Assembly (NCBI GenBank): GCA_002269645.1 | Contig: NIVC01000056.1 | Coordinates: 434,001-498,000 of the forward strand | DNA from: Macrostomum lignano | Lineage: Eukaryota | Length of the DNA stretch: 64,000 nt | Direction of reading: 5' to 3' | Shown: piece by piece, positions 14,091-60,639 of the stretch | Layout of the letters: each line of letters starts with the position of its first letter | How positions within the stretch are numbered: position 1 is the stretch's first letter | Made by a program: the position numbers and the translations under genes | The notes under the pieces: model-generated | Database searches by the model: none | What the model was told of the DNA's origin: nothing | What the model saw: only the letters and a program-made list of their open reading frames with translations

Positions 14091-17821
<3,731 letters not shown>

Positions 17822-40690: not shown

Positions 40691-41031
40691 AGTAGTATAT
40701 ACCATACAAAATTGCCAGCAAACCGTTCTCAGAATTCAATCAATTTAACCCTTTATCAGTGTGAAATGACTCATTTTCCCTTCATTACCGCTCGTCTTCA
40801 CTTCGCTCAACTCGCTCCGCTCATCCTCGCTTCATTTCGGTCAATCTCCCCATTTCACACTTACAACGATTAATTCTCATTGAATTATGAGAATACGCTC
40901 TCGTCGTTCGCTTTGGTTTGCTGGCAATTTTGTATCGTACTCAAACTCTTCCAACACTTCTAACACTCCCCCCCACTTCCAACTCTCTATAACCCCAGGT
41001 CGCGCCGCAGGCGCAAAGGGTATTTTTCTGT
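40691..41031 (+). repeat. Left terminal inverted repeat of the Polinton
   Basis: Reverse complement of 59275-59613 apart from a few substitutions and a variable CTTCCAACA short-repeat patch. Confidence 0.97.
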
Positions 41032-41199
41032 AGGTTTTAGAAAAGGCTATTCTTACAAACTCTGGCAGAATTATAATTTTTAATTAAATTTTTAAAATTT
41101 TTGAAAATTTTTGCCAGTGACAATATTCTGCCAACCAATAAAAATTACTTGGGCTCGCTCGCACAAAAAGAGTTTTTCTGTTACTAAAAATAGACAAAA

Positions 41200-41609
41200 A
41201 TGACACACGTTACGCATATACAAAATCTGAATGAATTGCAGGTAGGAGACCCAGTTGAATACCGAGGTGAGGGTCTTTTTGATGTGGTTGGAACAGCAGC
41301 AAATATTTTTAAAGACAATATGGGTCTTATAGGGCAAGCAGGCTCTGCAGCAGGTTCTATAACAAATGCTGTAAAGGGCGGAATCGAAGCAGCGAGGGCA
41401 GCAGAAGAACTAAAGAAATTGAGAGAATTTAACGACACCCTCTCACAAATAAAAGCAATAAAAATTTGAAACTAGCGCAGGAAGCAACCCAAGCCGCACA
41501 ACCAAAAGAAACCCCAACTAAAAGCACACCAATAAGTAATAAAGATATTCAGGATTTTAATAAAATGTTAACCACAATTAAAGGTGGAAAAGGATTAAAG
41601 AAATTTTAA
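41200..41609 (+). pseudogene. Small Polinton core/virion protein with GxG-type protease-site motifs, one frameshift near 41465
   Basis: ORF 41200-41469 (RGEGLF motif) continues in another frame as KLAQEATQAA...IKGGKGLKKF* if one A is restored in the A-run at ~41461. Confidence 0.6.
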
Positions 41610-41619
41610 CAATATAAAA

Positions 41620-42610
41620 ATGGACTCAATTAATGACGAAAATCATGCAAAGCATGCGACCTATCAGGACGATCGGCTATATTTTATAGGAGAAATTGTA
41701 GACACTCTAGGTTTAGATGATAATAAACATAGCCACACAATGTTAAAAAGATTGGATCGCTTAGGCAAAAAACTTGACTATGATATCGATACATTTAAAC
41801 TTGCTTCAAAATATGCAAAAGAAGGAAGGCCAATATCCTTTAAGAATCACGGTAGAAACTATAGGCTAACAGACTCCGATGTGAAATTTTTATTGGAGAC
41901 TCACACTAAAAAGGACGGTGGGTTGCTGCCCATTTTACCAATTCTTTTAGGTCTCGGAGCAGCTGGAGCAACCGGATTAGCAGCCAAAAGAATTCACGAT
42001 AACAGAAAACAATTAGCTGAATTAAAAGCAAAAGAAGGGGGTATATTACCCCTCGCAACTTTGCTCCCAATAATTTTTGCAGGAATAGGAGCAGCCGGTG
42101 GAATAGCGGGAGGAGCCGCCGGAATCACAAAGGCAGTAAATGACAAAAAAGCTGCGGATGAAAAAGCTAAACGAGATGCTGAATTTCAAAGACAGCAAAT
42201 AACGCAGGATGCACAATTCAAACAGAAACTCATTGACACTATTAATAGTAGTTCGGCAACACCAGCACAAAAAAGAAATGCAGAAGCTAGGTTAGCAGCT
42301 GGAAAAGGTTTAATTTTAAAAGGAACGACTCAAGGAAGCGGAGTTGTCGCAGATAAACTACATGAGTTTGGGCAAACTTTAGAAAAAAACGGGTGAGAAA
42401 GCTAAACGATTTTTTGACAATATTGGAGCCAATTTTAGACAAGCTGTTCAGAAGATTTTTAATAAGTTAGGAAAAGATTTTAATATAATCGAAAAACATG
42501 ACGGAAGTGGATTATATCTAGAAATGCGACCAAAAGCAGGTTCAGGAATCTTCTTAAATGCAAACGTTATGGGTAGTGGGCTACTGTTACCGAAAGCAGA
42601 TCTCGAATAA
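41620..42610 (+). pseudogene. Polinton virion protein with amphipathic GGxLP...GAAG modules (candidate membrane-active core protein), frameshifted after 42390
   Basis: GGLLPILPILLGLGAAG and GGILPLATLLPIIFAGIGAAGGIAGGAAGITKAVNDKK modules. The downstream frame gives the GSGLYL, GSGIFL and GSGLLL motifs typical of this Polinton family (recalled, not searched). Confidence 0.7.
41641..41674. repeat. Double-hairpin element copy 1 (in-frame in ORF 41620)
   Basis: AATC-ATGC-AAA-GCAT-GC-GACCT-ATC-AGGAC-GATC. Confidence 0.8.
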
Positions 42611-42636
42611 ATATTATATAAATTTTATTCTATAAA

Positions 42637-45600
42637 ATGGAACAAAGACTGACCCCAGATCAGATTCTACAACTTCTTGCAAATGAGCGCGAACAGTTCA
42701 ATCGATTACAAAGACAGGTTGAACAAATTGAACAGCGCCAAAGACAAAGACAAAGACAGAGAGCAAGAGAAAGACAGAGAGCGAGAGAAAGAGAAAGGCA
42801 AAAACAAAGAGAAAAACAAATAGAAGATCAGCAAATAAAAGAATTAGCAAATAATATAAGGGCAGAATATGAAATGAAGCGTTTAATAGAAAAAGCTGAA
42901 TATGAAAAAGGAATAGCAGAATTAGAAAAAAACCAAAAGAAACCCATTCGTCGGAAACCGCGGAATAAATCGGATTAAAAACCATTAGATGAGTTTATTA
43001 GGGTTTATCGATTTGAACCAATGCAGAATGTCCTAGATTTTATTGAAACCCAACTTTCAAACGGATATAGTGTTGAAATTACAAACGCAAGAGTACAATA
43101 TTTTTATAACAAAACCGGTGATGATCGCGAAGAGATAAATCAATACTTAGCAACATTTTATAATATAAGTCAGTTTCAAGCTTGGTTTAAGCATTTGGTA
43201 GAAAACTACGACATGAATTTAAGTGTGTTTTCCGGAAGACTTAAAATGACACCAAATGAAATTACACTTAAACACGAAAGGTCAAAGCAGGGTATGGGTA
43301 CAAATGTCATGTGTGAAATTGTGGAGTATCAAGATGAGTACTGTTACATACCTAGCGATGGAATTGTTTCTATAAGTGTGTTGAATTTATTTATGGCGAT
43401 AAAGCCCCATCCAAAGACGAATATGGTGCTTGGTTGTACGACTCAAGAACCCAAAGAGGTTTAATGACAAATTCAAGAATTGGAAAATTCAATGAATATT
43501 TTAATCTGAACATAGGGTTGTATAATCCTAATAATCCTGGAATAGAACCGAAGTCTCGAAGAGGGATTCACCACGATTGGTTATTAATAAATTACTATCA
43601 CACACCCGATTACCACACATTGGTCATTATTGCCTTATATCCAATAAACAACGGGGAATCGCCCTCGATCGGATAAAAGACAATTATAAAGTAGTATTTA
43701 AAAACCCAACTTCTGAAAATGTTAAAGAGCTAAAAATGTTCAATACATCCACAAATCCGAATAAATCAAATGTATACATATTTGATTTTGAAACATATTT
43801 AAATTATAATCAACAAGCATGCCCGTATGCAGTTGGTCTTTTAAACTATAACGACTTTTCCAATAATTGTAATGAAACCCCAGAGGCAATAAAGAAACTA
43901 ACTAAGATCTTGATTTCAGATCGCGGTTGTGATTTTCAAACAGACGGCGAGAAGGTTGACTGTGTTAGAAAAATGTTTAAATACCTTGGTTCAATTAGGT
44001 CAAAAAAGATTGTTTTGATCGCACACAACTCATCCCGCTTCGATTCATACATACCACTATTTTGCAATATAAAACCAATTAAAATTCTTAAAACCCCAAG
44101 AGGAATATTATCAATCACTTTTGTAAACGATTACGCGTCAAAAGCGGTTAGGGCGTTTATAAACAAAAATAAGAAGAAGAATCACAAGGATTCGAAACAA
44201 ACCATTACGATGCTTTGCTCATATCAACACGCCTCAATGAGTTTAAAAAAGTTTTGCTCGTCAATGACAATTAGAAAGGATTTGCGCAAGACCTCAATGG
44301 TTCATGACATTACCGAACACGACTACCTAGAACGGATGGATGAATGGTATGAATATTTACAATTTGATCTTATTTCTTTATGCGCCTGTATTCATAAGTA
44401 TAACGAAAAAGCATATAAAATTGGAGGAATGACAATGTTTGATACTCTTACATGTTCGAGTTTAACATTAAAATGTTGGTTTAAAGATTTTGTTAGAGTT
44501 GAAGACAAAATGAAACAATACCTAAAGACAAAAGAAAAAACTAATTACATTAAAAAAGTTGAAGAAATAATATCTCCTTTGAAAATCGAAGATTATTTTG
44601 ACTTGAGCAAACTTGAAAAAACGAAATACCAACCACTATTAAGAAAAGAATTTTCAGTTCACTCTCACACCAACCCTTATATAAGAAGGTTTATGCGAGA
44701 CGCAGTCAAAGGAGGCAGAGTATTTGCACTAATAAATAAATACGAAAGCGACTGTTTTCAAACAATCGTAGACATCGTAAAAGATCATTTAAAAACACCA
44801 ACAAGCGACCCATGCGAGGTTATATCAACTTATCTCAAAAGCGACATGGAAGAAAAAAAGAAAATCGCAATCAAACTAAAAAACCAATTGGGTACCGTAT
44901 CAGATTGCTTAATGAATTTTGATGGAGTCTCGTTGTACCCATCCGCCATGTCTGATAAGGATAGCGAATATCCAAGAGCAGAAACAGCCAGAGTTTTTGA
45001 TATAAGCGAGGAAAAAGATTTCTTGACACAATTTAATTCACAAACCTTTCGACCAAAAACAGCGGTTTTAAAGATTATGTATGAGAATCCTACTAACGTT
45101 TTTCTTCAACATCTCCCATCGAAAGATAAAGAGAAATTTTATAATCCGGAAACAAAAGCAAATGAAACAAAAACATTAAATAGGTTTAGAAATGGAAAGG
45201 TAATTGACACCCTATGTTCCGTAGACATACAAGAAATTGTAAGAATGGGTGGAAAAATATTAAAGATATACAGTGGAATTGTATATGAAAAAAATTACGA
45301 TTTCTCTCCGTTTCAGAATTATATTACAAACCTTTTCGAAATGAGAAAAGTATTTAAAAAAGAAAATAATGAGGCGGGTTCTGAATTGGTAAAAACATTG
45401 TTAAATTCCTTATATGGTAAAACGGTTCAAAGAGACATTACTTTCACAACTCATCTCTGGAATTTGCAAACATTAAAAAAAGAATACGACGACACAATCA
45501 AGTCTTATGAGAAAATATGTGATGACTTATTTTATGTTGAAAAAAAGAAAGACACACAAGAATATGTAGATGACGACGATAATCCTACAACAGGTCTTTG

Positions 45601-46279
45601 TCCGGCGCAATTAGACATATTTATTTTAGCTCATTCAAGAAGGATCATAAATAATTTTATCACGTCTATAGACGGTTCAAAGACTCCAGAAATTTATTAC
45701 GGCGACACCGACTCGTTATATAAACATAAAAAACATTGGGATAAATTAAATAAAAACGGGCATGTCGGAAATAATTTAAGTCAAGGAAAAAACGATTATG
45801 GAGAGGGTGGAATTATATTCGGATATTTTATCGCTCCTAAAATTAAATATTGTCTTTTGTTGAAAGACGATTTTATTATGGAAGAGAAAGAAACAATTAT
45901 TGGATGTGCAAATGATAAGGTTAATTTCGCATCGTTTAAAACTTTATATGATGGTCAATCAATAAAAGTAAATAATAATGCTCCGTGGAAACGATCGTTT
46001 GAAGGTGGCATAACAATTCCTCAAAGCGGCTCAACCATATCAAAAACATTTACTTCTACGATAAACACATATAAAAGAGAAAAACCGGATAAAAACGGAG
46101 TTATGAAACCATTCTTTAAAAACTATTTTGATGATAAACCAGAACACGAACATTCAATTGAATATTATAACAGTTTACTTTTTGACGTTGACTATAATTG
46201 TTTTGAGTTTGATATCATATCGGATTGGAAACATATCGTCACCATAATCACTATATTTCTGATTGATAATTATATTTAA
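42637..46279 (+). pseudogene. polB: Protein-primed family B DNA polymerase; N-terminal part has an in-frame stop (42976) and frameshifts, C-terminal ~900 codons open
   Basis: ExoI YIFDFET, ExoII AHNSSRFD, Pol A FDGVSLYPSAM, Pol B KTLLNSLYGK, Pol C YGDTDS. ORFs 42637 and 43021 are in the same frame, separated by one TAA. Confidence 0.95.
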
Positions 46280-46353
46280 TTTTTTATTAATATCATTTAT
46301 TTCACGTTCTTTTGTAACCAGGATCTTTAGTGTCTCCATTTTCTTATAAAAAT

Positions 46354-46689
46354 TTAGTCATCGTCTTCGTAGTCCTCCCAAACGGAAGCCAATTTTACAG
46401 TCCTATCACTCTTTTTATTTTTTGTTTGTTTTAGTTTAAATTGCAGCCCAATATCCAGACTGTATTTCATAATAAAAGTTTTCGGCTTATTAATAACTAA
46501 AACAGGAAAATTTTTAACATCATCTCCGCTTAGACATAGGACTGTGTTATCACTCAACTGTAAAAATATTGATTGAATTCCAATAAATTTAACCTGTCGC
46601 AAACATATAATATCATACTCCTTATGCTCCAGAGAATTGGGTGTGAGAAAATTAATCACATTAGAATCGGTTTTGAACCAATGTTCCAT
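46354..46689 (-). CDS. Polinton hypothetical protein (111 aa)
   Basis: Open ORF with the TAAAAATG start context shared by the element's genes. Confidence 0.65.
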   Translation of the reverse strand: MEHWFKTDSNVINFLTPNSLEHKEYDIICLRQVKFIGIQSIFLQLSDNTVLCLSGDDVKNFPVLVINKPKTFIMKYSLDIGLQFKLKQTKNKKSDRTVKLASVWEDYEDDD

Positions 46690-46715
46690 TTTTAATCTAA
46701 AAATAATAACAAAAA

Positions 46716-46943
46716 ATGAAAGACATTTACGAATGTAAAAAATTTAATGTGACTATGCATAGAGGTCAAACAGAAAACGGAGATATATATCATATGTGTT
46801 ATTCGTGTTCTAAGATATATCAATTTGAAAAAACAAAAAAGATTGAAAACTCATATTACTATTTTAAAAACATAATTATAAAAAATCTTACACGGGATAT
46901 TTCCAATCCAACTTTAATCCCCGGAAATAATTTTTATTTATAG
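46716..46943 (+). CDS. Polinton hypothetical protein (75 aa) with CxxC
   Basis: AAAAAATG start and a CYSC motif. Confidence 0.5.
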   Translation: MKDIYECKKFNVTMHRGQTENGDIYHMCYSCSKIYQFEKTKKIENSYYYFKNIIIKNLTRDISNPTLIPGNNFYL

Positions 46944-47082
46944 AATAACTTTTTCAATTTAAATCAAGGTAAGGGATTAAGTTCGAAAGACGCTGAAAGG
47001 ATTTTAATTTTACTCGTAGTTGGATATTATTTCAATTTTCTTATGCGAGAGAACACAAAGTTTATAAGGATAGGCAACATAC

Positions 47083-47739
47083 CTAACGAAATGCTATTGA
47101 AAAGTCATTGGAATTTTTACGTATTGATAAAAAATTTAAACCTCGAATTACAAGAGAGTTACCACTTTGGAAAGAATATATAACGTATGCATTAAATAAA
47201 CTACACAACATGAAGTTCGACCGAACCTCCGGTTCGCGGATAAGTCCGACCGTACTTTCTGACCGCGGGCTTTGGACACCCGTTGCTAGAGTATCAGGCT
47301 TGTATTCTAACGTTTCTATAGGTGGAGGTTTGGGTTTGTCGAGTCGTAATTCCTTCAATTCCATATCTGTAAAAGTTTCAACATCCAAAATTCTATTTCC
47401 ATCTTTTAAATATTTTTCATATAATTCAACCGCTGTTGATAGCTCATGAATTGTTATCTCTCCATCATCTAGAATTTTTTGAACATATAAATATAACTGA
47501 TTTTTATATTGTTTAGCAACATGTCTTAATGATTTATACTTTTCCTTTCTTTTTTTAAGATATAATTTAATTGCCAAAAGAATTGATAAGTTTCTGATTA
47601 TTTCAAAACCTGATATTGAACCAATTGAAATACCTAAAAATAATTGAGATAAATTAAGAGTTGGAATAGACTGTAAAATACCCAAAACAATTACACATAA
47701 CATCGATAAGCTTCCAAAATCAATATTAAAAAAATCCAT
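47083..47739 (-). CDS. Conserved Polinton membrane protein (GasderminX-like family), C-terminus altered by a double-hairpin insertion
   Basis: Hydrophobic N-terminus, then KKRKEKYK and VQKILDDGEITIHEL, resembling the K-AL-D--IS--EF motif of this family (from memory). Confidence 0.55.
   Translation of the reverse strand: MDFFNIDFGSLSMLCVIVLGILQSIPTLNLSQLFLGISIGSISGFEIIRNLSILLAIKLYLKKRKEKYKSLRHVAKQYKNQLYLYVQKILDDGEITIHELSTAVELYEKYLKDGNRILDVETFTDMELKELRLDKPKPPPIETLEYKPDTLATGVQSPRSESTVGLIREPEVRSNFMLCSLFNAYVIYSFQSGNSLVIRGLNFLSIRKNSNDFSIAFR
47219..47251. repeat. Double-hairpin element copy 2 (1-nt deletion)
   Basis: GACC-GAACC-TCC-GGTTC-GC-GGA-TAA-GTCC-GACC. Confidence 0.8.
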
Positions 47740-48656
47740 ATTCCTAATATGGTTTGAAACTTGTCACGTTATTTGATGTTGGCCGTGACCTTAAAAGGGC
47801 CGTTTTAGTCCCAAAATAAGTTGAAGTCAACTTAGGCGAAGTGGATGGTGTAGCGGAGCACTTGGCAATAAGGGCAGGAAACTGCCGTAGTTGTCTTTAT
47901 TGTTAATATCAGTATTAAGTTTGGTTGTTACTGGCAATAAACAGACTATAGCTTTCTGGGCACTGGCGGCTGCAACAATGGGTTGAATATAATTTGGATA
48001 TGAAGTCAAGTGGCAGGCGAATGACACAATGGCGATGTGACGTGAGCAGTGGCTATGAGCACCGTGAAGGCAGTGAAACGTAGTGGCGAGTTTGGCGTCG
48101 GTCGTGGCGTGAGACAGTCAAGTAAGTGTGTGAGCAGGCTGGCCCAGGCAGAGGGGCCGTGGTGAGAAATAAGGAGGCTCGAGGCAGCCAGACAAACAGA
48201 TAAGACAGCTAAGAGGCAGCAGGGAAGAAACCAAGAGAGGAGTGCCGCCGCCAGGCGGGGGGGGTTTAATAAAAGAGCGCAGAGGGGGGTAGCGCGAGCA
48301 CGAGTGATTTCATTGGCTGGCGAGAGAACTTAAAATTATCGATCGTGCCAATTTTATACGGTCGCGAGAGAGGATAGCAAAATATACAGTGAATTAGAAA
48401 TTGCCACAAAATCGTTGGGCATTACTACAAGTAAACGTCGCAATAAACGAATGGAAAAGTTTAGTTGAAACGGTGAAACTGAAGGGTTGAATGACTATGG
48501 AGAACAGCAGTCCAACGGCCCTTTTCGGGACCACCTTAAACTGACAACGTCACAAACTCTTCTTACTTTTTTACTATATAAATCATAATCATAATTTATT
48601 CGATCACATTACTTAACATGTGACCCTTACGTTGGTTGAATCGGTCGCGTTTCATT

Positions 48657-48995
48657 TTATCTGCCTCGGACACCGATATTTTCGTCTATTTTTAATAGCA
48701 CCAAAATGAACTCCCCGCGCTCTTTGGGAATCTGCCCCGAGCTCAAAAAGTATTGGATTGGAGTTATTCTTTCTTTTTTCTCCCATTTAAATCCAATCTT
48801 CCAAAACTCTTGAAGTATGATATGGTTTTTTAATAGTTTAATTAATTCTTGAAGCTTTTTATTATCCTGAACATTTACAGTGCTAAATAAAAATTTGGTA
48901 TAAGATTTAAAAGTTTTTATATTTGATTCTTGTTTAGGAATCGGAATGACAATGTTGTTATTTTGTCTCATAGATGGAGTTCTACTAAAAGCCAT
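48657..48995 (-). CDS. Polinton hypothetical protein (112 aa)
   Basis: Open ORF with TAAAATG start. Confidence 0.6.
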   Translation of the reverse strand: MAFSRTPSMRQNNNIVIPIPKQESNIKTFKSYTKFLFSTVNVQDNKKLQELIKLLKNHIILQEFWKIGFKWEKKERITPIQYFLSSGQIPKERGEFILVLLKIDENIGVRGR

Positions 48996-49016
48996 TTTAT
49001 ATAGAGATATTTAGGT

Positions 49017-49050
49017 TATCGTGCAAAGCACGCGACCCTACGGGGCGATC
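49017..49050. repeat. Double-hairpin element copy 3 (intergenic)
   Basis: TATC-GTGC-AAA-GCAC-GC-GACCC-TAC-GGGGC-GATC. Confidence 0.85.
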
Positions 49051-49066
49051 GGACGATGCTCGCGCC

Positions 49067-50994
49067 TTAAGTTATTTGGACTGTGGGCTTCTCTAAACAT
49101 GCGCTCGCAGCAAAACTATATCCTGCTGATGTGCTACCACAAGCTGCTGCGCCGCGAATAAAATGTGCGGCATCTGCTCCTCCGGTTCTAGCACAAAAAC
49201 CCATAAGCGTTCCCGTTTTATCTAACTGTCCCCATGTCCCACTATCAAATGTGAAGAAATTTTGCCCAATTAGTGTGTATGCTTTAGTTGAAAATTGAAT
49301 GAACTTAATTGATACCAAACCCTTTGATTAAGAATATTGATTTTAAACAGATGCCAATCACCGTTATCAATATTGGCGTAGGTTACTGTTTGATCCGCGT
49401 CACTACTAACATCATTACGGACTGTTGCGCCGTCTGATTTTTTATTACTCCAAACAACTCCAAATCGATCCGTCCACTCACTAGCAAACACTATCAAACC
49501 GGCGTCGGTTGTTAATCCAGACCCAAATTCTGCTGTTGGTCGTTCGTGACAATATGCATACAACCAAACATCTGCACCATCTCCTCCAGAATTAGCAACT
49601 CTGAAAAAGAAGGAAGCTGCAATATTTTTAAAATGTGTGAAATTGAATTGTAATGCCCCACTTACACCTGAGGTTTCGCGGGTAATTCTAGCACCATTTT
49701 GATAATCAATATATGAAGCGTCACTAATAAAACTTCCTGTTGGAAAAATATCACCAGCGGTGGTTGGATTTTGGTATCCAGTCCAATTGAAAATGACTGG
49801 CTCAAATAAAGTGGCATCAATCGCAGGTATTCCATCCAATTTTATTTTATCGTTAAAAGACATTCGGCCATCCGCCGTTTGGGTTACAACCGTATCAACA
49901 TAACCTTTAGTAGCAACAGAAGTGTTATCGTTTATGGTCGAGGTATTAGTAATTGTATTACCACCCATATCCACTGATTGATTAACTACTCCCAAATTTA
50001 AATCAAGAATTGTAAAAGTCTGTCGATAAATCTGGAAGGTTGACAGTCCGGGATTGGTAGAACCAGAGGTTGATGTAAGACAGAACAATCTGAAATATGT
50101 ATAGGTTTTATCAAAATTTTGTGTGACATTAAATGTTTGAGTTGAGTTATTTATTGCTACGGAACTATCTGCCGGTATTAAAACATCCCAACTTGTATTG
50201 TCATTACTCCCCTCAAACCGCCATGACGCGGGGTGCTCGGTTGAGGGAGATGGTCTACCACGCAAATCAATTTTATAACACATTATAGCGGATGGGCATT
50301 GAACCTTAATCCAATAATCGGTTTGTGTATTATTGGTTGCCCAATCTGTTGAATCATCCCCATCAAAAGCTTTCCAACTTGCAAAATCGGTTGTATTAAA
50401 TGCGGTGCTTGCGGTTATTGCAAAACCATTTCCACACCAATCTGACATTGTTGGTACATGGCCGGTTTCAACCGTTTGGAATCGATCCTGTTTTGGAATT
50501 CCACCTCCAACTAAATTATCAACTTCAGTTTTAGTATATGAATCAGCAACATTCCGTTTCAAATTTAACGAATCATCAATTTCTGTTTTGTTATAAGAAT
50601 CAGCAACATTCCGTTTTAAATTTAGAGAATTATCAACTTCGGTTTTGGTATATGAATCACTGATATCTCTTTTCAAATTTAACGAATTATCAACTTCGTT
50701 TTTGGTATAAGAATCAGCAACATTCCGTTTTAAATTTAGTGAATTATCAATTTCTGTTTTGGTATAAGAATCGGCTGTATTGCGTTTTAAATTTAATGAA
50801 TCATCGATTTGCGTTTTGGTATAGGAATCTGCAACATTCCGTTTTAAATTTAGTTTAGTATCACTTTCAGTTTTTTTATAACCTTCGTCTTCATTAATAT
50901 ATCGGTTGTCTCTGAATGTAACGCTGATTCCGCCAGATCCGCCACCACCAGCACTTGTTGTTCCGTTCCATGAGGGTGTTCCACTAAATAACAT
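49067..50994 (-). pseudogene. Fibre/receptor-binding protein: 19-aa repeats, discoidin (F5/8C)-like domain, ATKGYVD motif, L-type lectin-like C-terminus; frameshift near 49310
   Basis: About 6 LNLKRNVADSYTKTEIDNS repeats; SWKAFDGDDSTDW...SWRFEGSND; IDNGDWHLFKI, and GFCARTGG...HFI in the shifted frame 49067-49318. Confidence 0.8.
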
Positions 50995-51003
50995 TTTTAC
51001 TGC

Positions 51004-51635
51004 CTATTTTATAGAGTCTAAAATCTTCTTAAAGTCTTCGGGTGTTTCCTTCGAGTTTTTGATCGAACCTTTGGTTCGCGGACTCCGTCCGATCTTATAT
51101 AAAAAATGCAACGCTGCTTGTCCACAATAACTTTTATCAAAGGTTTGAAATTGTTCGTGATAATCTCCACATAAACGGTTTTTAGTATGATTAAATTTGT
51201 CTTTTATTTCCTGTAACGGAGGTAATCAAAAAAATAAACAAGTTTGGGTTTTGAATAAACTGCTGACCAATGAACACCATTTTCTTTTGTTGTTTCTATA
51301 TTGACAATGTAAGATCCATATCTTGGTAAGTCTTTTATTTCATCTCGCATAACACATCTGAATGGTTTTATCTTTAATTGCCTCGCCTAATTTGTTAATT
51401 CAATATTGCTTGTTGTGGCAGTTCCATATCTTTTTTTAAAATCGCCCAACACGTTAATGCCATTTTATGTTCCTGAAAAACTCTTGGTTTTAGTTAGTTT
51501 CTTATCCGGTGGTTTTAATAATTCCTTTCGGGTTTTTTCTGCTTGAAGCTGTTTCAATTTTGTTAGTTCGATATCATAATTATCCTTTGCTTTTTGAACT
51601 TTATCCGATTGTTTTTTTAAAGCATTGTTACCCAT
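51004..51635 (-). pseudogene. Adenain-like (C5) cysteine protease, disrupted
   Basis: Manual translation gives FRCVMRDE...IVNIETTKENGVHWSAVY...YFFD / PPLQE...QFQTFDKSYCGQAALHFL, i.e. catalytic H, D, Q and C. In-frame stops and a deletion after FFD. The start position is uncertain. Confidence 0.88.
51061..51094. repeat. Double-hairpin element copy 4 (in-frame in protease)
   Basis: GATC-GAACC-TTT-GGTTC-GC-GGAC-TCC-GTCC-GATC. Confidence 0.9.
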
Positions 51636-51648
51636 TTTTACTATATAA

Positions 51649-52434
51649 TTAAACCTGTTTTATACGTAAAATTACTGTTATTGCTTGTCCGCCAAAACTA
51701 ATTATACGATCTGAATCATCAACAACTCTTACATAAATTGATTGTAAATGATATTGATTTAAAGGATAATATATTGGGGTTTGGGGTGCAACAATCATTT
51801 TATCTCCAATTGGAACAGCAAGAAAGGGGATTGAATAAATGATTCCACGCTGAACCAAAACACCATTATCATCTGTTATATAACCACCGTTCGAAATATC
51901 AGTTGTTATATTAATTGTATTAACTCCGCCCTCAATGTTTCCCACCGTATCGCCGGTGCTTGATGTGGTAACGATTCGTGAATTAAATCCGAGTATGGTT
52001 CTAAGTGAATTTGCAATTGTGAAATCAAACTGATATCCAGCAGCTAAAGTCAAGGTAAATCTTCCCGATGGTAAATCAACTCCTATAACAATTGCATCTG
52101 CTACCCAATCACCATTAGCAGTTAAATCAGCTTGTATTACAGCATTCAAATCAGTATAGTTATATGCTCCGGGTGTTATAGTAATTGTTGTCCACTTTGC
52201 TCCTGAATCTTTAGAATACCTAAATTGATTATTTGTTGCATTAATTAATTGGGGCATGTTGAAAACCGAAAACATTATCAAACCAATTTGATAACTTAGA
52301 CTTTGATCGAGTTGTAACGGATCGCGCAATTGAATCCGTTGTTCGCTGCTTGTCATTATAAACTGTAATGTTGTACTAAATTTTGAATTGGTTCGATCGA
52401 CCAATTGTTTTATAGTATCTAAATTTGTAGCCAT
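51649..52434 (-). CDS. Minor capsid protein (penton, single jelly-roll)
   Basis: Intact 261 aa; ITPGAYNY and the C-terminal PIYYPLNQYHLQSIYVRVVDDSDRIISFGGQAITVILRIKQ are typical of Polinton pentons. Confidence 0.9.
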   Translation of the reverse strand: MATNLDTIKQLVDRTNSKFSTTLQFIMTSSEQRIQLRDPLQLDQSLSYQIGLIMFSVFNMPQLINATNNQFRYSKDSGAKWTTITITPGAYNYTDLNAVIQADLTANGDWVADAIVIGVDLPSGRFTLTLAAGYQFDFTIANSLRTILGFNSRIVTTSSTGDTVGNIEGGVNTINITTDISNGGYITDDNGVLVQRGIIYSIPFLAVPIGDKMIVAPQTPIYYPLNQYHLQSIYVRVVDDSDRIISFGGQAITVILRIKQV

Positions 52435-52448
52435 TTTTATAGTTGGGA

Positions 52449-52482
52449 AAGCGGACTTAGTCCGCGTTCCTTCGGGGCGACC
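52449..52482. repeat. Double-hairpin element copy 5 (at ATPase stop, upstream of penton)
   Basis: AAGC-GGAC-TTA-GTCC-GC-GTTCC-TTC-GGGGC-GACC. Confidence 0.8.
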
Positions 52483-53275
52483 TACTCCTCATTTTCATTA
52501 TCCTCTTTTATCAGATCTGTTAAGATACGATTTCTCCTTTCTAACCTAGGGTTGATATATAAAAATGTTTGTATTGACTATCATCCCAATTTTTTTTTAC
52601 ACATAATTTTAAATGGTTTTGTATCCAACCCAGGATTAAATCTTGCGTGTATATTTTGTAGATCATAGTTATCTAAATCAAACATTACACAACAGCTAGC
52701 ATTCTTTTTTATAATCGAATCTAATTCTCTAAATGACTGTGTTAGATAAAACGCTCCAATTCCATCTCCTCTGCCACTAACAAAAATTTCCTTTTGCAAT
52801 TCTTGATCGCCGTCGTTAATACAATCATCAAAAATAATTAGTGTTTTATCATCTTTTGGAATTTGATCATAGGATATTCGGGTTGATACTCTAACGGTTG
52901 GTGATCGGACGAAGTCCGCGACCCTATGGGGCGATCTTTCGGTTGTGTTTTCTGGCGCTTGTGCCGTTGTTTTACATAAATCCTCAATGTCATCGAGTGT
53001 AAAGTTTGGTTCGTCGTCATCCTCATATTGCTCATACGCTCTTAACATTCTAAAAAAACATCTTTTTTTAATTTGTTTTTTAATCCATGTTTAAGAAATT
53101 CATAATTTTTAATTCGAGGTTTGTTAGTATAAATTATTAAATTATTATAGTCTAACATTCCATCGGTTGTTAACAGGTCATAAACAAAGTGTGTTTTTCC
53201 TTTACCCGATCCCCCAATTACTAAACAAAGAAAAGGATCGTTTGGAAATATCTTATTATGTTTTGCTTTTACCAT
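52482..53275 (-). pseudogene. FtsK/A32-like packaging ATPase, frameshifted
   Basis: Walker A GGSGKGKT, Walker B LIIFDD, SGRG..IGAFYLTQS. Fragments 53042-53275 and 52581-53048 plus a C-terminal shifted frame. Confidence 0.92.
52903..52936. repeat. Double-hairpin element copy 6 (in-frame in ATPase)
   Basis: GATC-GGAC-GAA-GTCC-GC-GACCC-TAT-GGGGC-GATC. Confidence 0.9.
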
Positions 53276-53325
53276 TTTTAAGGAAATAATTTAAATAGGG
53301 GGCGACGGTCGGAGACCTGCACCGC

Positions 53326-54807
53326 TTAAAATGGCGCGTCCCGAACGATGGTGTTGTCGGCTTTGGCAATTGCCAGATATTCCTCTAGAAACAATACGTG
53401 GGCGTCTAGTGCCTGATTACCAGTTTTATTAATCTCTAACATATAATTAAAACCAACATTGGCTACGTTTTCTTTCTGTGCGGTTAGATAAAAAACAACC
53501 ACTGGATGAATGTTTAGAAACTCTGTGGGAGTATATTGAGGAACAGCATACGCTTCATTTTTGACATAATCCTGATAATATTTTATAAAATCATTAACAT
53601 TATTATTTCCAAGATTTAGATTAAGGGGGTCTTTAACCGGATAATATTGATCATCAACCTGCAGGCGGATATTCTGGACATTAAACTCGTTAATCGCTGA
53701 AACCGCGTTGTCGGTTGCGGTGGCTGCTTGTGCTGCTACGTCACCTGATTGAAGCCAATATAAATCCCCGTTTGCTCTTTTGCTCCTTCTGTTTGTTATC
53801 TTAAACCAAACAAAAATATACCTCACCCGACGTTTTGATGTCAGTATTTGCCACTGACATTTTCCTGGTTGTTATTAATGGTTCGCATAAAGTGTCGACG
53901 ATTCAAATAAAATATTTCTTGATCAAGCTCTAACTGATCATCGATGTGTTTTACCTGGTAAAAGCGGAGCCGTTACCTCAATAGTTGGTACGACTAATTG
54001 AATTGAAGCTATGCGAGCAGCTATATCGGTTGAAATCGAAGTTCCATAAAGTATCCTCCTAGGTTGATATCCACCAGATATTTGCAACTGTATACCAAAT
54101 TTTAATCCTTTCCATACACGATTTGGTGAGAAGAACCCAAATAGTGGGAAGATTGAAAAGTCCTGCTCATATGCGGTTGCCGTGGTTAAAACCTCGACTG
54201 GAATTTATTCTGACGATCTATAAAACCGGTGTTCATATCTTTTGTGTTAGTCATGGTAGTTACAACTGGAACTATATTGGTATTAAGATAAGCAATAAGA
54301 GCTGCGGTATCTGCGCCTGCTGCGTTTTGTACGTTGGGGAAAACTACTGCTTGACCATTACCCTTATCCGGCATCCATCCAACACTATCACCAACTTGTT
54401 TTTATAAATAAGTATAATTTAAATGTTTCAAAACTCCATTAATCTCTGCTGGGTTTGATGCTGTCTCAACCTCGGCTCCATTAACTGTTAGTTGGGCTTG
54501 GGAAAAAACATTTATAAAACCAATCATTTTCTATAATAATACCAGATCGGTCAGCTATATCACCAGCTACCAGGGCAGTTCCATCGTTTCTGGTATACAA
54601 CCATCTAACGCGGAAAAACGCATTTTTCATATCCAATATGCTGCTGGTTGCGCCGATGTCAAATGTTACTGTTCCCGTAGTAAAATTGTTTGAATTATCA
54701 CTTGTTGGTTGAGTAAAATTTAAATCTCTTTTCCTGACCTCATTAATATACTGACGGTGCTTTTTGAAATGAAATTTATCACTCCATATGGTTTTTGTTT
54801 CAGCCAT
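53326..54807 (-). pseudogene. Major capsid protein (double jelly-roll), several frameshifts and stops
   Basis: Fragments join into ~490 codons: TVTFDIGATSSILDM, QLTVNGAEVE, FPLFGFF...LKFGIQLQI, IQLVVPTIE, RYIFVWF, IRLQVDDQYYP, HPVVVFYL. Size and position next to the ATPase and penton fit a Polinton MCP. Confidence 0.85.
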
Positions 54808-54841
54808 TTTTTTAAGTTAAAAAAGTTTTTTATATTAAAAA

Positions 54842-55519
54842 ATGAGTCAGTTTATGGATGTTGATGGAGAGTTAGCGATTTATAAAGAGAAGCAAAGATA
54901 TTCTGATTTTGTTAGAGATTTACAAAAAAGAAAGTTGGGAATACAGTTGGCTGGTGAGAAATTTGCTGCTCCTTTTGTTAATCCTATTACGGGGAAAATT
55001 AGTGAACTAGAAAAAACAGATAAAGACCTTCTTGAAAAAATTGCTAAGAATACGGAACCAAAAGAGGACGATGTTGTGGAGGATGAGCCGCCTGCTTATG
55101 ATGTTGATCAAGCACTATTGCGAGTTGCAGAGATTAAGAGTGCAGAACGGGGTGGAGTTGAACAATATTCTAGAGCTGCACCACAAAGTATTGGTGTGAC
55201 AGATTTAGGTAATGATAATTATCGAATTGGTGGAGTTGATAAAAATCGGAATGAACTATATAGAGGATTGGGTGGAGCATATAATATTATTATGAACCCT
55301 AGAGTAAAGTTTAATCCTGATTTATATACTGAGGATGAATTAGTAAGCGCTAGAAATTTTTATGATGAGTTAGGAGTAAGAGCTGCTAAAAACACCAGTT
55401 TGTATAAAAGGATTGTTGGTTCTATAAATAACAAAAGGGCTGTTGGTGATGGTTTAAAAACTCCTCGAAAACTCGTTTTAGCCGCTGCCAAAGCTGCAGG
55501 ACATACTGGAATTAATTAA
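54842..55519 (+). CDS. Polinton hypothetical protein (225 aa)
   Basis: Intact ORF with TAAAAAATG start and a VGDGL motif near the C-terminus. Confidence 0.75.
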   Translation: MSQFMDVDGELAIYKEKQRYSDFVRDLQKRKLGIQLAGEKFAAPFVNPITGKISELEKTDKDLLEKIAKNTEPKEDDVVEDEPPAYDVDQALLRVAEIKSAERGGVEQYSRAAPQSIGVTDLGNDNYRIGGVDKNRNELYRGLGGAYNIIMNPRVKFNPDLYTEDELVSARNFYDELGVRAAKNTSLYKRIVGSINNKRAVGDGLKTPRKLVLAAAKAAGHTGIN

Positions 55520-55535
55520 ATTTTATTTTTTTAAA

Positions 55536-56021
55536 ATGGAAAATACGATAAAAGATTGTCTTTGTAAACCTATTTATGATAAGGTTGGTTCTGACAGAAT
55601 ACTAAATAAAATATTTCAAGATGAATTAATAATTGCAAACCGTATTAAAACAATTCAAATGAGACTTGGATCTCTTTATGAATTATTAGCTATTGAACAT
55701 TTTGGTTTTGGAAAAATAAAGAAAATTGATTTAATTCATACCGAAAGAAAAATTGCGTTAGAGTTAAAATCTTCTGATAATACAGATAATTCATCAAGTC
55801 GATTTAGAAATATTCAAAAGTTATTAGAATTTAAATATGTTAATCTTGAATTTGATTTATATTATATTTGCATTAATAATACTACTAAAAACCCCGTACA
55901 GAAGATATTTGATAATGGTGTTACCTTGTTAACAGGGGAGTTTGCTTTAAATTTTTTATATGGCGATCAATATTTGGAGATCATTAAACTGATAGAGAAT
56001 TGTTTTTTAATTAACCATTAA
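55536..56021 (+). CDS. PD-(D/E)xK restriction endonuclease-like protein, Eco47II/Sau96I-like
   Basis: IQMRLGSLYE...KIDLIHTERKIALELKSSDNTDNSSS resembles the D...E-x-K-x-x-x-N-T-x-N-S-x-S signature of the Eco47II family (pattern recognition only). Confidence 0.7.
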   Translation: MENTIKDCLCKPIYDKVGSDRILNKIFQDELIIANRIKTIQMRLGSLYELLAIEHFGFGKIKKIDLIHTERKIALELKSSDNTDNSSSRFRNIQKLLEFKYVNLEFDLYYICINNTTKNPVQKIFDNGVTLLTGEFALNFLYGDQYLEIIKLIENCFLINH

Positions 56022-56149
56022 AAATGAGCCAACTTGTGTTTGAAGGTGGATTTTTGGATGTTCAAAAAGGATTAACAAGCTTACCAAGCGTTTTTACTAC
56101 TGGAAAATATACGAATGAATTACACATCCCAGGGTATTCGTACGCAGGT

Positions 56150-56449
56150 TAACCGAGGCCTGAGTGAGGAAGTCAATGTCCTTGCTAGTCACTATTTGTG
56201 GCGACACCTTCAAATTGCGTGAAACCCGTCATACAGCTTCAAGTACCACTTCAATTGAGAAATCTTTTGAAGGAACAGAGGTAACTCCTCTTCCCAAAGG
56301 TAACAAGCTTGAAGACAAGGTGGCAATGCGCAGCCAAGCTCCTAAGTATAAAAATATAAGGAGAAGGTTCAGAGAGCAGACGGAGGTGGGCGGTAATTTA
56401 TCCGCTTAAGGTGTGCTCCAGCCTCTTTCGAAAGATTGAGGGCAAACTA
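56150..56449 (+). ncRNA. Group I intron, subgroup IC1-like, 300 nt, no ORF
   Basis: P1 CAGGU/GCCUG with U.G at the 5' splice site. P3 CACCUUC/GGAGGUG. P4 UGCGUG/UGCGCA. P5abc with GAAA tetraloop and GUAACAAG bulge. P6 GCC/GGU. P7 GAGAGCA/UGCUCC with bulged A. P8 GGGCGG/CCGCUU. P9. Removal restores GYSYAG-PGT in frame. Confidence 0.93.
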
Positions 56450-57309
56450 CCCGGTACTGGACTGGATTTGAGATTAAATCCAGATGACACTCCAAAAGCT
56501 GATTCAATTCCCATTAATGGCATTGATTGGTTAGCATATTATCATGACTTAGCATACAGAGATGCTGATAATAATTCTCCTGAGGAAGCATTAAGATTAA
56601 AGCATGAAGCTGATAGAAAAATGATTGAGGGATTAGACAATCTACAGGGCTTATCAGTAAGCCAAAGATTAACTAGGTGGATGGTTAAAAAGATCTTGCA
56701 ATCTAAAGTTAAATTTGGTTTGGGAATTAATTACAACCAACATGGAAATAATTGTGTCGAGTGTTTATTATTAAGTGGTGGTGGGTTAAGTTCTGATGAG
56801 GCAAAGGTTCTTCACAAAGAATACCGAAAGCCTAAATTTTATAGAAAAATCATGAACTTCAAAAAGAATGAAATTTGGTATGCTGATTTAATGGCAATGC
56901 CGCCCGATATGGGATATAAATATATTTTAACCATATTAGATGGTTTTACTCGATATGCGTGAGCTGTTCCTTTGAAATCCAAAAAAGGAGAAGAAGTTGC
57001 TTCTGCTTTTAGAAGTCTTGGAGAAAAAAGTGAAAGGTTGTGTGTTGATGAAGGAAAAGAATTTTACAATCATCATATGTATAAATTGTATCATTTTGAA
57101 AAAGGAAAAGAAAGGAAAAAAGACGCGAATGGTGAGTATATTAATAAAATTTATTCTATTTATGGAGAAAGTAAAAACGCACTGATTGAAAGATTTAATC
57201 GAACTTTAGGTAAGAAATTGTGGTTTCAGTTTAGTCTGAATGGTAACCAAAAGTGGGTAAAAATATTACCAGACGTCGTGAAAGATTATAATAATTCATT
57301 TCATTCAGC

Positions 57310-57343
57310 TATCGTTCCTTCGGAACGCGGACTTCGTACGATA
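57310..57343. repeat. Double-hairpin element copy 7 (in-frame in integrase HSAI/KMTP motif)
   Basis: TATC-GTTCC-TTC-GGAAC-GC-GGAC-TTC-GTAC-GATA. Confidence 0.9.
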
Positions 57344-57654
57344 AAGATGACTCCTCAACGAGCTTATAACAACCCTTAAAATGTTAAAGTTACTTTTGGA
57401 TCACTTGAAAAAAAGAAAACTAAACCTTTTAAAGTTGGTGACTCTGTTTATATCTATAAATGGAAAGATAAGTTTGAAAAAGGAAGAAAAGGATATTGGA
57501 AAATAAGTGAAAAATTTACTATCAGTAAAGTTTTAAATACAAATCATACGACCTATATCATTGCCGATAAAGATGGTGAAGAAATATTGGGATCGTTTTA
57601 TGAGAACCAGATATTATCTGCAAGCTAAGCTTGGGCAGATAATGTTAGTTTAAT

Positions 57655-57966
57655 TTAGACTTTTAGTGAATCTAGGGGGTCGTGTTGTGGGAGCTCTTGT
57701 TGTTCTTTTTCTCGTTTACAACACATATTGGGACATATGCATATAATATAGAAAAGTAATGGAATTATTATTAATATTATAGTTGCAATTGATATGATTA
57801 CTATTGAAATTGTCATTTCTGTTTCTTTTTTCGTCTTATTCAATGTATTATTTTGTTGTTTTATGATATCCGTTATTTGATATAAACGAATGCTTGGATA
57901 GCCTATAAATAAAATATAAATTAGAAAAATAAGAATGTGTGTTATATCAGGCTTGCTTTTATCCAT
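57655..57966 (-). CDS. Small protein with two hydrophobic (TM) segments and a Cys-rich tail
   Basis: Two hydrophobic stretches, then CICPNMCC; TAAAAATG start. Confidence 0.65.
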   Translation of the reverse strand: MDKSKPDITHILIFLIYILFIGYPSIRLYQITDIIKQQNNTLNKTKKETEMTISIVIISIATIILIIIPLLFYIICICPNMCCKREKEQQELPQHDPLDSLKV

Positions 57967-58015
57967 TTTTAAGAATAAATTTTAAATAATAATTACTTGA
58001 GGGGGCGATTTATGT

Positions 58016-58324
58016 TTATTTTTTATAATCTGTTATTAAAGTTTTTAATGGTGTTGGATGTTCGTTATATTTATATTTAAATGAGTTAATAATTTGTTCA
58101 AGGTCTAAATACCAAAAATCTATACTTAGTTTCCCATCCTTATAACACCTGTCATTAAGATATTCACTTATTTTTACTTCAACCCTCCTTTCACTTCCAT
58201 ATCGTTTTGGGAATTCAATTTCTAGACCTTTGATTTCATCTGTGGTTAGTGTATATATTTTTACTCCTCGAATTTTGACATATTTTATTAAATCCTTTTT
58301 TATCATCTCTTTGACTTCTGCCAT
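58016..58324 (-). CDS. Polinton hypothetical protein, paralog family (GVKIY motif)
   Basis: IKKDLIKYVKIRGVKIYTLTTDEIKGLE. Confidence 0.65.
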   Translation of the reverse strand: MAEVKEMIKKDLIKYVKIRGVKIYTLTTDEIKGLEIEFPKRYGSERRVEVKISEYLNDRCYKDGKLSIDFWYLDLEQIINSFKYKYNEHPTPLKTLITDYKK

Positions 58325-58726
58325 CTTATTGATAAAATAATTAAGTTATTTTGAAATAACTTAATTGATAAATTATTAAGCTTTTCACAATTACCCTTCT
58401 CTATTCCATGTTTGTTAATATTTTTTAGTGGCGCAAATGAATACTCTTTATATTCAAGATTAGTATCAATATAAAATCCCACTGGATAATGAGTTACTTG
58501 TGTAGGTAGTTGATAATTATTCAAATATGTAACCAAATCAATAACATTATCATCAATATTGCTAATGAACCTTTTATAAGTTTTTTTTAAGTTTCTATTC
58601 TAGTTGCATAATTTCAGATGGTTTTAGTGGATATATTTTTACTCCTTCTAATAGTACAATTTTTATTAAACCATCATTTATCTTCTGTTTTAGATCTTTT
58701 AGCCTTTGATCAATTTTTAATTCCAT
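58303..58726 (-). pseudogene. Disrupted paralog of the 58016 ORF
   Basis: ATG at 58726 gives MELKIDQRLKDLKQKINDGLIKIVLLEGVKIYPLKPSEIMQLE*, continuing after disruption into ORF 58303-58536. Confidence 0.55.
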
Positions 58727-58909
58727 TTTTATGAATAAATTTTTAAATAATTGCTTACTTGAGGCAGCAAGGTAATTAATTTTTTATAACAAATAAAAAC
58801 AATATTATTACTATTATAGTTACTAATATTATTATTGAAATTTGTTCAACTGTTATCAAACTTAAATTTTCATTAAGTTCCTTAACTGGCACGTTTCCGA
58901 TATAGGAAA

Positions 58910-58943
58910 AATCATGCAAAGCATGCGTATCGTTGATGCGATT
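58910..58943. repeat. Double-hairpin element copy 8 (intergenic)
   Basis: AATC-ATGC-AAA-GCAT-GC-GTATC-GTT-GATGC-GATT. Confidence 0.85.
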
Positions 58944-58948
58944 TACCT

Positions 58949-59266
58949 TCATTTTTTAGTTATATTTTTACAGACTCTCCGAATCACTAGTTTCATAAGA
59001 ACTGTTTGTTGATTCGGAATCTGTTGATCTAACCTCCCAATCCTCGAATTTAAATAATCACCAAGTTGAAATATTAACTCTCCCTCTTGTTCTAAATCAT
59101 ACAAACCATCCAACTCTAACGGATAAAGTTTTAGTTCGTGCTTATCGTCATATTTTAAATAAACTTCATCAATTATTCCATTCAATATGTGCTGTTTTAT
59201 TATCACTGCATTCTTAGCAACAGTCTCAAAAGTATCGCTTACTGAAAAGTTGTAAACTCGGTTCAT
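58949..59266 (-). CDS. Polinton hypothetical protein, more distant paralog
   Basis: TAAAAATG at 59266 just inside the TIR (MNRVYNF...ILNGIIDEVYL...KLYPLELDGLYDLE). The longer ORF-track start lies in the TIR and is unlikely. Confidence 0.6.
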   Translation of the reverse strand: MNRVYNFSVSDTFETVAKNAVIIKQHILNGIIDEVYLKYDDKHELKLYPLELDGLYDLEQEGELIFQLGDYLNSRIGRLDQQIPNQQTVLMKLVIRRVCKNITKK

Positions 59267-59274
59267 TTTTAGTA

Positions 59275-59613
59275 ACAGAAAAAGACCCTTTGCGCCTGCG
59301 GCGCGGCCTGGGGTTATAGAGAGTTGGAAGTGTTGGAAGTGTTGGAAGAGTTGGAAGAGTTTGAGTACCATACAAAATTGCCAGCAAACCAAAGCGAACG
59401 ACGAGAGCGTATTCTCATAATTCAATGAGAATTAATCGTTGTAAGTGTGAAATGGGGAGATTGACCGAAATGAAGCGAGGATGAGCGGAGCGAGTTGAGC
59501 GAAGTGAAGACGAGCGGTAATGAAGGGAAATGAGTCATTTCCCACTGATAAAGGGTTAAATTGATTGAATTCTGAGAACGGTTTGCTTGCAATTTTGTAT
59601 AGTATATACTACT
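59275..59613 (-). repeat. Right terminal inverted repeat of the Polinton
   Basis: Reverse complement of 40691-41031. Confidence 0.97.
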
Positions 59614-60639
59614 CACTTAGGCCGCGTAATTCGGCCGCATTGGTAATTTGTGAAGTAGAAACTGTTGGAAAATCCTCAGCCGCCATGGTCCCAAATGGAA
59701 GCCCTAATAAAGTGGAATCTTACCATGGTCGCAGCCGTGAGATCAGAGGCTTGATGTGGAACAAGCAATTTTGTCAATTATTGATTCAAAGATGTGCATA
59801 TTTTAGTTATTCTTTTAGATTTAAATTGGACACCATTTTTTCAATCAATACTAATATCAAGATTGCAGCGTAGGTTGAGATTTTTAATTAGAATTCGCAA
59901 AATTCATGACAAGTTCGATCCCCGATCGCTTACACGGCAGTATGGTTTCCTAGAAAAGAAAACTTCTCTTTGGTAGTATTCTTTCTACGTTTTTAAAGCT
60001 ACTCAGGTGGATATCAAAAGAAAAACTTATTCTATCTATACTACTTTCATAGAAGTAGGAGTAATCTTAGCTTAAAGTTTCTATTTATTTATCCATAACT
60101 CGCAAGACTCACAGTGAATAGCGATATAAATGAATAAATCCAGTTGCACCAGCAGAGATTTTACATCAGTAATAATTACCTCTGCCAGAATTTCCACTGC
60201 GAAAAGATTATTAATAAAATGGACTGAACTGATATTGGTAGAGCCAGGCAATCAGCACTCAACGCAATAATGCCGACCTTAATCCGTGAAGGTACCCAGG
60301 CAATGGAGAGGTACGTGCTTTTTCTAAGCAAACAGCCCGCCTGTTCCAGCCTCTCTCTCTGTCCACTGCTCCCTGTACAAATAGTGGAAGCCAATTATCG
60401 AGATGGGATACATTTGACCGTGGTTTTAATCAGAGCGGGGAGAATCAGCCCCCCGTGGTTGTATGGAACTGCGCTGAACAATCTTTATTATCAAAGCTGA
60501 GCTGCAGCCAACTATTGTAACAGATTCGGTACTACACCATGCCTCGAGGTAAAACCAGCATAATATTTAAAAAGCTGTCTTTATTTAGCTATCTTCATTT
60601 TTATGCACAACTTACTGGCCCTATGTAGAATCCGAGCGT

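Follow-up and report, generated by a model that had tools for sequence, protein, structure and literature searches.

A mobile 30-bp double-hairpin element in a family of Polintons

Since gene-less hairpin elements were discovered in mitochondria, what moves them has been an open question. Double-hairpin elements (DHEs), reportedly the subject of a paper by Paquin et al. from 2000, occur in chytrid and fission-yeast mitochondrial DNA (PMC10085805, PMC2800124, PMC5910586), and those of Allomyces lack a transposon-type target duplication (PMC2800124). Here, we describe a 30-bp element of similar design in a 64-kb stretch of a 764-Mb eukaryotic assembly (contig NIVC01000056.1, positions 434,001-498,000), hereafter called the window. 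The element lies within a Polinton (Maverick) integrated among host genes, the host being presumably an animal. Among the papers listed, our literature search found no double-hairpin element reported from Polintons; subscription journals, Repbase entries and supplements were outside that search.

A likeness to mitochondrial DHEs had been pointed out in the original prediction, and it fits. The unit is short and GC-rich, consists of two adjacent hairpins without coding capacity of their own, varies in presence between close relatives (filled and empty sites at 28/32 site clusters) and appears to lack a clean target duplication: the flanks overlap by 2 nt, and of 15 non-AT targets only one is retained on either side of the unit. 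Unlike DHEs, it is found in an integrated, virus-like nuclear transposon rather than in mitochondria, in one family only, with a fixed 13+15+2 geometry and in arrays of unlike units with swappable arms. It also lies mostly within protein genes, in frame, whereas fission-yeast DHEs are intergenic or in rRNA genes. With yeast mitochondrial GC clusters such as GC42 it has in common GC-rich palindromes in an AT-rich host, changes that cluster in the loops, units that merge and shuffle, and putative co-conversion of flanks; GC42 is 42 nt long with an AG duplication, and the Polinton element is 30 nt long with a mosaic AT junction (PMC4478555). The element works like both mitochondrial DHEs and yeast GC clusters, and we do not claim that it belongs to either family.

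Eight copies had been predicted in the window, at 41641, 47219, 49017, 51061, 52449, 52903, 57310 and 58910, and all were located at these positions. Seven of the eight fit a pairing descriptor (C, 4-bp stem, 3-nt loop, GC, 5-bp stem, 3-nt loop, G, with at most two unpaired positions); the 47219 copy, a 29-nt unit, is one base short. The units are as follows, including two that the original prediction did not contain.

41642-41673, + strand: element with AT at both ends, in frame in the core (pX-like) gene (descriptor; empty-allele comparison)
47220-47250, - strand: element one base short, with an identical non-AT dinucleotide on both flanks, within open reading frame (ORF) 47083-47739
49018-49049, + strand: element in an intergenic hot spot (descriptor)
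49050-49071, + strand: decayed second unit adjoining the 49018 copy (newly added)
51062-51093, - strand: element in frame close to the end of the protease-like gene (descriptor; empty-allele comparison)
52450-52481, + strand: degenerate element between the ATPase and minor-capsid-like genes (descriptor; empty-allele comparison)
52904-52935, + strand: in-frame element in the ATPase gene, at a stretch that varies (descriptor; empty-allele comparison)
57311-57342, - strand: element in frame in the integrase YNxxxHxxI-xMTP motif (empty-allele comparison)
57608-57633, no strand assigned: variant unit at the integrase stop, made up of two 13-nt hairpins; empty alleles exist for it (newly added)
58911-58942, + strand: element close to the right end, either within a small ORF or next to it; sibling copies of the Polinton fill this site with two different element types

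The core-gene site at 41642-41673 is occupied by a different element in one sibling (L026). In a check named beforehand, the descriptor matched 7 times in the Polinton, compared with a mean of 0.075 (maximum 1) in 40 dinucleotide shuffles. With at most two unpaired positions, the host DNA on either side of the Polinton (45,077 bp) held no match; with the descriptor loosened to three bad pairs, there were 5 matches in host DNA and 3.2 in shuffled sequence, which is chance level.

We determined how the sites vary between Polinton copies. The sample comprised 65 stretches and the window (692 kb), chosen around matched sites and capsid matches and not at random. Of its 134 descriptor matches, 130 fell within the Polinton mask; the other four were two true units in family-homologous stretches and two GC-rich look-alikes. 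After removal of the look-alikes, 132 units grouped into 114 arrays and 32 site clusters, a minimum because adjacent sites were merged in some clusters. At 28 of the 32 clusters the empty-site check, also named beforehand, found an allele shorter by exactly 30 bp, and filled and empty alleles were in places identical at 140/140 flank bases. The exact empty sites and the failure of shuffles to match bear out the proposal of a mobile mini-element.

Unrelated elements can occupy one and the same site, as can units that share hairpin B but differ in hairpin A. Four identical 28-mers are each present at more than one site cluster, and identical arms recur at up to nine. Within arrays, units are joined by an AT linker (18/18), occur in both orientations and differ from their neighbours (17/18); slippage duplication as the source of arrays is ruled out by these unlike neighbours. 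At one polymerase site we found the alleles A2B2 (a single unit), A1B1-A2B2 (a dimer) and A1B2 (a hybrid of the outer arms of the dimer), the last being the expected product of slippage across the shared CGCG step. These results demonstrate that many independent sites acquired the element, each time as a unit of exactly 30 bp, and that its two hairpins are reshuffled as modules. Among the sequencing runs listed as containing the Polinton, none was of RNA, and run contigs aligned to it were not decisive for expression or excision.

Each unit consists of hairpin A (13 nt) and hairpin B (15 nt), both running from C to G, plus AT. Folded as DNA, most copies give two abutting hairpins of 5 and 6 bp. 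In a correction to the predicted architecture, the central GC is base-paired with the C and G at the outer ends. The suggested closing stem of a T-shaped junction, like the inverted terminal repeat of adeno-associated virus (AAV), formed in none of 10 folds of the eight copies. Among 76 distinct 28-mers, A and B arms combine freely, and many hairpins are present in both orientations (a flipped partner exists for 12/34 hairpins A, compared with 1.25 expected). The compensatory stem changes noted in the original prediction are real, with both-sided change at 8 of 11 pairs in 32 units whose selection by the pairing descriptor biases the count towards structure by construction. They are not necessarily a sign of selection, because template switching inside a hairpin also produces such changes. 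In the 76 units, GNA or its complement makes up the two loops 31 and 39 times, and AAA/TTT 33 and 6 times; the C-GNA-G loop is very stable in DNA (PMC3201870). None of the 76 units contains GGNCC, matching an avoidance seen across the family. Three-hairpin units (A-B-A) were observed at G000:C925:243514-243556 and C2221:23003-23045 and are probably collapsed head-to-head dimers.

A degenerate pattern that imposes no pairing gave 312 exact and 405 near matches genome-wide and none in its reversed control. Judged by eye, the first stem was fully paired in 96 of 100 among the matches listed, and 20 of 20 further matches picked from those listed had Polinton-family flanks. None of 32 other loci encoding a protein-primed DNA polymerase B (pPolB) in this genome lay near an exact match among the matches listed (by eye; contigs up to C1116). 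A looser scan of six stretches with another pPolB gave 0-3 unrelated GC-rich matches each, 6 in total, and no unit of the element family. Every true unit checked lay inside one Polinton family. Elsewhere, viral contigs gave no match for two patterns and one for a looser pattern, and prokaryote genomes gave 0 and 19 matches for two patterns; these 20 matches are single occurrences, with the first arm paired in 4/20 and both arms in 0/20. No multi-copy match to the element pattern was found in 185,579 prokaryote genomes and no such unit in ten metagenome loci, short ones, with related integrases; a phage blastn search gave 7 matches, at chance level.

The insertion sites share a target preference. 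AT was present in the closest empty allele at 13 of 28 sites, against a 10% background, and T was the second base at 23 of 28. The element thus prefers AT, or less strictly xT, including its own AT junction. A 4-bp target duplication had been proposed, but comparison with empty alleles shows an overlap between the flanks of 2 nt and not 4. At the 15 non-AT targets, AT lay on both sides of the element in 8 cases and on one side in 4, the target dinucleotide was retained on both sides in 1, and 2 were ambiguous. This pattern matches no duplication of 4 bp, nor a clean one of 2 bp, and such mosaic junctions fit templated copying better than a fixed staggered cut.

Four ten-codon insertions (integrase, protease, ATPase and ORF 41620) read as the original prediction had claimed. 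The last had been placed at the N-terminus and is in fact internal, near residue 149, because the full gene has 468 codons in a sibling and ORF 41620 represents its downstream piece. In-frame insertion was also seen in natural integrase frames, which have 325 codons without the unit and 335 with it. Of 107 matched homologues (120 examined), 106 have no insert in the interrupted integrase motif. This invariant length rules out that inserts are confined to naturally variable loops, and an insert at such a place makes the element look parasitic. In the predicted integrase structure the retroviral integrase fold is kept (mean pLDDT 84.5), and the insert is modelled as a low-confidence loop at 231-236, which is no demonstration of a working enzyme.

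In-frame units occur in both polymerase types, the ATPase, the core gene and small ORFs. No site lay inside the capsid-like, minor-capsid-like or fibre-like genes (P ~3e-4, assuming uniform placement and hand-entered gene lengths); these labels, like that of the protease, are ones we presume from size and gene order. The 30-mers number 76 within genes and 35 between genes, while off-frame two-hairpin units (26, 28, 29 and 32 nt) number 0 within genes and 14 between genes, the latter from three regions. Another 28-nt unit type is located at the integrase stop. These results demonstrate that the element is filtered by selection on Polinton reading frames. Its length, a multiple of three, lets it sit in replication genes while it is purged from capsid genes, and as a probable parasite it would add a further level of parasitism in Polintons. 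We regard it with high confidence as a selfish non-coding parasite and not a signal; the cis-acting signal that had also been suggested is unlikely, as every site is polymorphic or rare.

Further known systems resemble the element in part. Rickettsia palindromic elements, which are bacterial and ~100-150 nt long, are likewise palindromic DNA adding in-frame residues to proteins; the Polinton element adds ten codons. REP/REPIN-RAYT systems and integron attC sites involve folded single-stranded DNA (ssDNA) recognised by shape, and arrays; unlike in those systems, no HUH transposase or tyrosine recombinase was found in the Polinton-family ORFs examined. MITEs (miniature transposable elements with inverted repeats) of giant viruses are non-autonomous elements parasitising a DNA virus. 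Compared with these, the Polinton element is far shorter, has a terminal repeat of 1-3 nt at most rather than terminal inverted repeats (TIRs) of at least about 10 nt, and shows no consistent target duplication where MITEs have a fixed one. No MITE-type transposase was present in the Polinton-family ORFs examined, and the host genome was not searched for one. The hairpin tips recall parvovirus terminal hairpins, from which the units differ in being internal and dispersed, without the long closing stem that AAV-type hairpins have at the genome end. For the question of the mover, a single genome here offers hundreds of copies, 32 or more sites (filled and empty alleles at 28), nested arrays and arm swaps, all in a 19-kb element, and the list of candidate movers is short and testable on oligonucleotides.

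Tentatively, and with a likelihood somewhat short of even, we propose copy-in at the DNA level during Polinton strand-displacement replication, followed by spread through conversion. This mode of replication exposes single strands, which would explain both the DNA-type loops and the confinement to the Polinton. A nascent or broken 3' end might switch to a folded copy on the displaced ssDNA via 2-4 nt of AT or GATC-like homology, copy both hairpins and return at the second AT. After arrival at a site, the element could spread between Polinton copies by recombination. A filled/empty heteroduplex would have four arms, namely the two flanks and hairpins A and B, much like a Holliday junction, and if a junction nuclease nicked its empty strand, conversion could be biased in favour of the filled allele. 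Arrays may collapse by slippage across the shared CGCG step, giving new arm pairs. Template switching with AT microhomology is ranked first because it is compatible with every junction class.

Several points weigh against this proposal. The enzyme and intermediate for copy-in are putative, and template switching alone does not explain well why length and C..G ends vary so little. The classification of junctions is soft, because the closest empty allele is a relative and not the true ancestor; flanks are less than 90% alike in 7 of 28 filled/empty comparisons, and the next base is overwritten by C in only 4 of 28, a weak signal. Unit counts differ from event counts, as the copies are related, and the 14 off-frame units are few independent events because they are limited to three intergenic regions. 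For hairpin B, flips number 8/46, a count that shuffles can reach (maximum 10), and loop bias is not considered in the flip control. The endonuclease VII domain, a candidate junction nuclease, is also present in element-free pPolB families; its motif is DHDH in 3/3 from element-free families with a match there and EHCH in 10/10 of the element family. Nuclease domains are common in Polinton polymerases (PMC5803895; 10.1101/2023.08.22.554363), and endonuclease VII-type domains are known from them (PMC5803895; 10.1101/2023.08.22.554363; 10.1101/2024.03.18.585575).

Other routes were weighed against copy-in by template switching. We ranked second, as an unlikely though serious candidate, a dumbbell cut and paste: a 30-nt single-stranded circle of two stacked hairpins with an AT bulge would be inserted into one target strand by single strand exchange, through a transesterase or a junction nuclease plus ligase, and replication would then separate filled from empty strands. 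Integron cassettes and IS200/IS605 elements insert by single strand exchange. The dumbbell would account for the exact 30-bp gain whatever the junction, for either orientation and for insertion into the element's own AT junction; the one-sided junctions (4/15) are as expected of one crossover with a circle, and B+B 32-mers and A+A 28-mers are present, as excision from head-to-head arrays predicts. However, AT flanking both sides of a non-AT target (8/15) requires extra conversion, and searches of Pfam with 17 ORFs from the window and 16 from siblings, and of PHROGs with 11, gave no HUH or tyrosine-recombinase match, several small ORFs being without a name. The family encodes endonuclease VII and HNH-type nucleases, and T4 endonuclease VII cuts junctions, many branched DNAs and heterologous loops (PMC11466669, PMC3057012). 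Somewhat less probable again is that the element is a Holliday-junction mimic hijacking the Polinton's endonuclease VII-type nuclease. Its four-way junction would form when looped out against an empty allele, or as the free 30-nt dumbbell, and nicking would lead to homing to sister copies and jumps to new AT sites. If true, no double-hairpin element would have had a named mover before, and the element would act as a minimal drive encoded by shape in an animal DNA virus. An Eco47II-like ORF of the family was also considered as mover and is unlikely, as the family avoids GGNCC and the targets lack it.

An RNA route, in which the element is transcribed in Polinton messages and rewritten by a host reverse transcriptase or RNA-templated repair, seems improbable. 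Many copies do lie within reading frames, but three-base loops of GNA/TNC and AAA/TTT in both orientations suit DNA over RNA, and such a route would not alone spare host DNA, where no true unit was found in the stretches checked. It has been proposed for Allomyces DHEs and yeast GC clusters (PMC2800124, PMC4478555). We consider equally improbable a useful cis signal (origin, packaging, recombination aid or terminator) kept and multiplied by the Polinton. Conserved structure, confinement to the family, hot spots at gene ends and obedience to GGNCC avoidance (0/76 units) would suit a signal, yet no sampled site is fixed, number and position vary freely between copies, capsid-like genes are spared, and one insert breaks an integrase motif of unchanged length in 106/107 matched homologues. 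Although the assembly has many single-base indels in Polinton genes, independent palindromes or assembly artefacts at each site are next to inconceivable given 312 exact matches against a control of 0 and the same arms at up to nine site clusters; the element bears no resemblance to the local empty sequence, and arms shared by unrelated sites refute such an origin.

The host Polinton is 18,923 bp (18.9 kb) long and carries ~20 genes. Long TIRs, AG..CT ends and a 6-bp duplication identify it as a Polinton, as do profile matches to pPolB, a retroviral-type integrase and an A32-type packaging ATPase. Its main features are listed below.

40691-59613, no strand assigned: host Polinton (Maverick) with AGTAGT ends; 6-bp target duplication at 40685-40690 and 59614-59619
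40691-41031, + strand: left TIR (inverted-repeat comparison)
59275-59613, - strand: right TIR (inverted-repeat comparison)
43736-46279, + strand: pPolB of the minority type (profile match; sibling comparison)
55536-56021, + strand: nuclease slot, with an Eco47II-like ORF here and an HNH/endonuclease VII-like ORF in other copies (profile and sibling comparison)

Pfam searches of the Polinton ORFs gave no name for capsid, minor capsid, fibre or protease, and the capsid-like and polymerase proteins had no relative in the viral contigs searched. The capsid-like protein gave 87 scored matches among 375 candidates in the genome, with open frames in most; the Polinton family is therefore large and recently active. 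In the window copy, the integrase, ATPase, protease and core genes are also interrupted at places other than the elements. Most sampled siblings have the other pPolB type, carrying the endonuclease VII domain (Pfam E 3e-7), which had no match below E 1 against PDB sequences. At window positions 42609-46215, two unrelated pPolB types alternate at one family location, with their ORF clusters in 4 and 15 stretches.

The Eco47II-like restriction nuclease ORF matches Pfam under the cut-off (E 1e-3 in the window, 1e-5 in sibling L036) and has 9 homologues. GGNCC, the Eco47II recognition site, was observed 16 times in 416,561 bp of the Polinton family compared with 213 expected, and 605 times outside the family compared with 639 expected. 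From sequence counts, this near-absence suggests an active nuclease that the Polinton escapes by site avoidance. In another copy, the HNH/endonuclease VII-like ORF (L029:4665-5411; PHROG E 1e-10) occupies the same slot directly upstream of an intron-bearing gene and could be a free-standing homing nuclease for that group I intron. In the ESM Atlas it matched viral clusters without a name at 0.95-0.96 and HNH families at 0.87-0.88, a lead only.

The group I intron lies at window positions 56150-56449 (+ strand) in the PLA2-like/integrase gene (Rfam RF00028, 63.3 bits against a cut-off of 50, E 3e-14). Its motif gave 24 matches in the sampled stretches, and one natural copy (L057) is intron-less. 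The terminal base differs among copies, splicing is predicted only, and one hairpin-element site falls within the intron. Among the papers listed, our literature search found no report of a group I intron in an animal Polinton; one study found such introns only in Polinton-like viruses of a few protist groups (PMC12220804).

Other observations concern the rest of the window. About 800 bp at 47760-48555 are missing from siblings, are far deeper in sequencing runs and are probably a host repeat inserted here; a weak histone stem-loop match at 48512-48558 lies within this stretch. Inside each terminal repeat (40691-40945 and 59359-59613) there is an inverted repeat, together with a run of words like GCTC. 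The fibre-like gene at 50457-50912 has 57-bp tandem repeats that differ in number among copies. Host exons lie at 17098-17829, 30029-30535 and 34371-35081 (homeodomain, LicD and ankyrin), amid many minisatellites.

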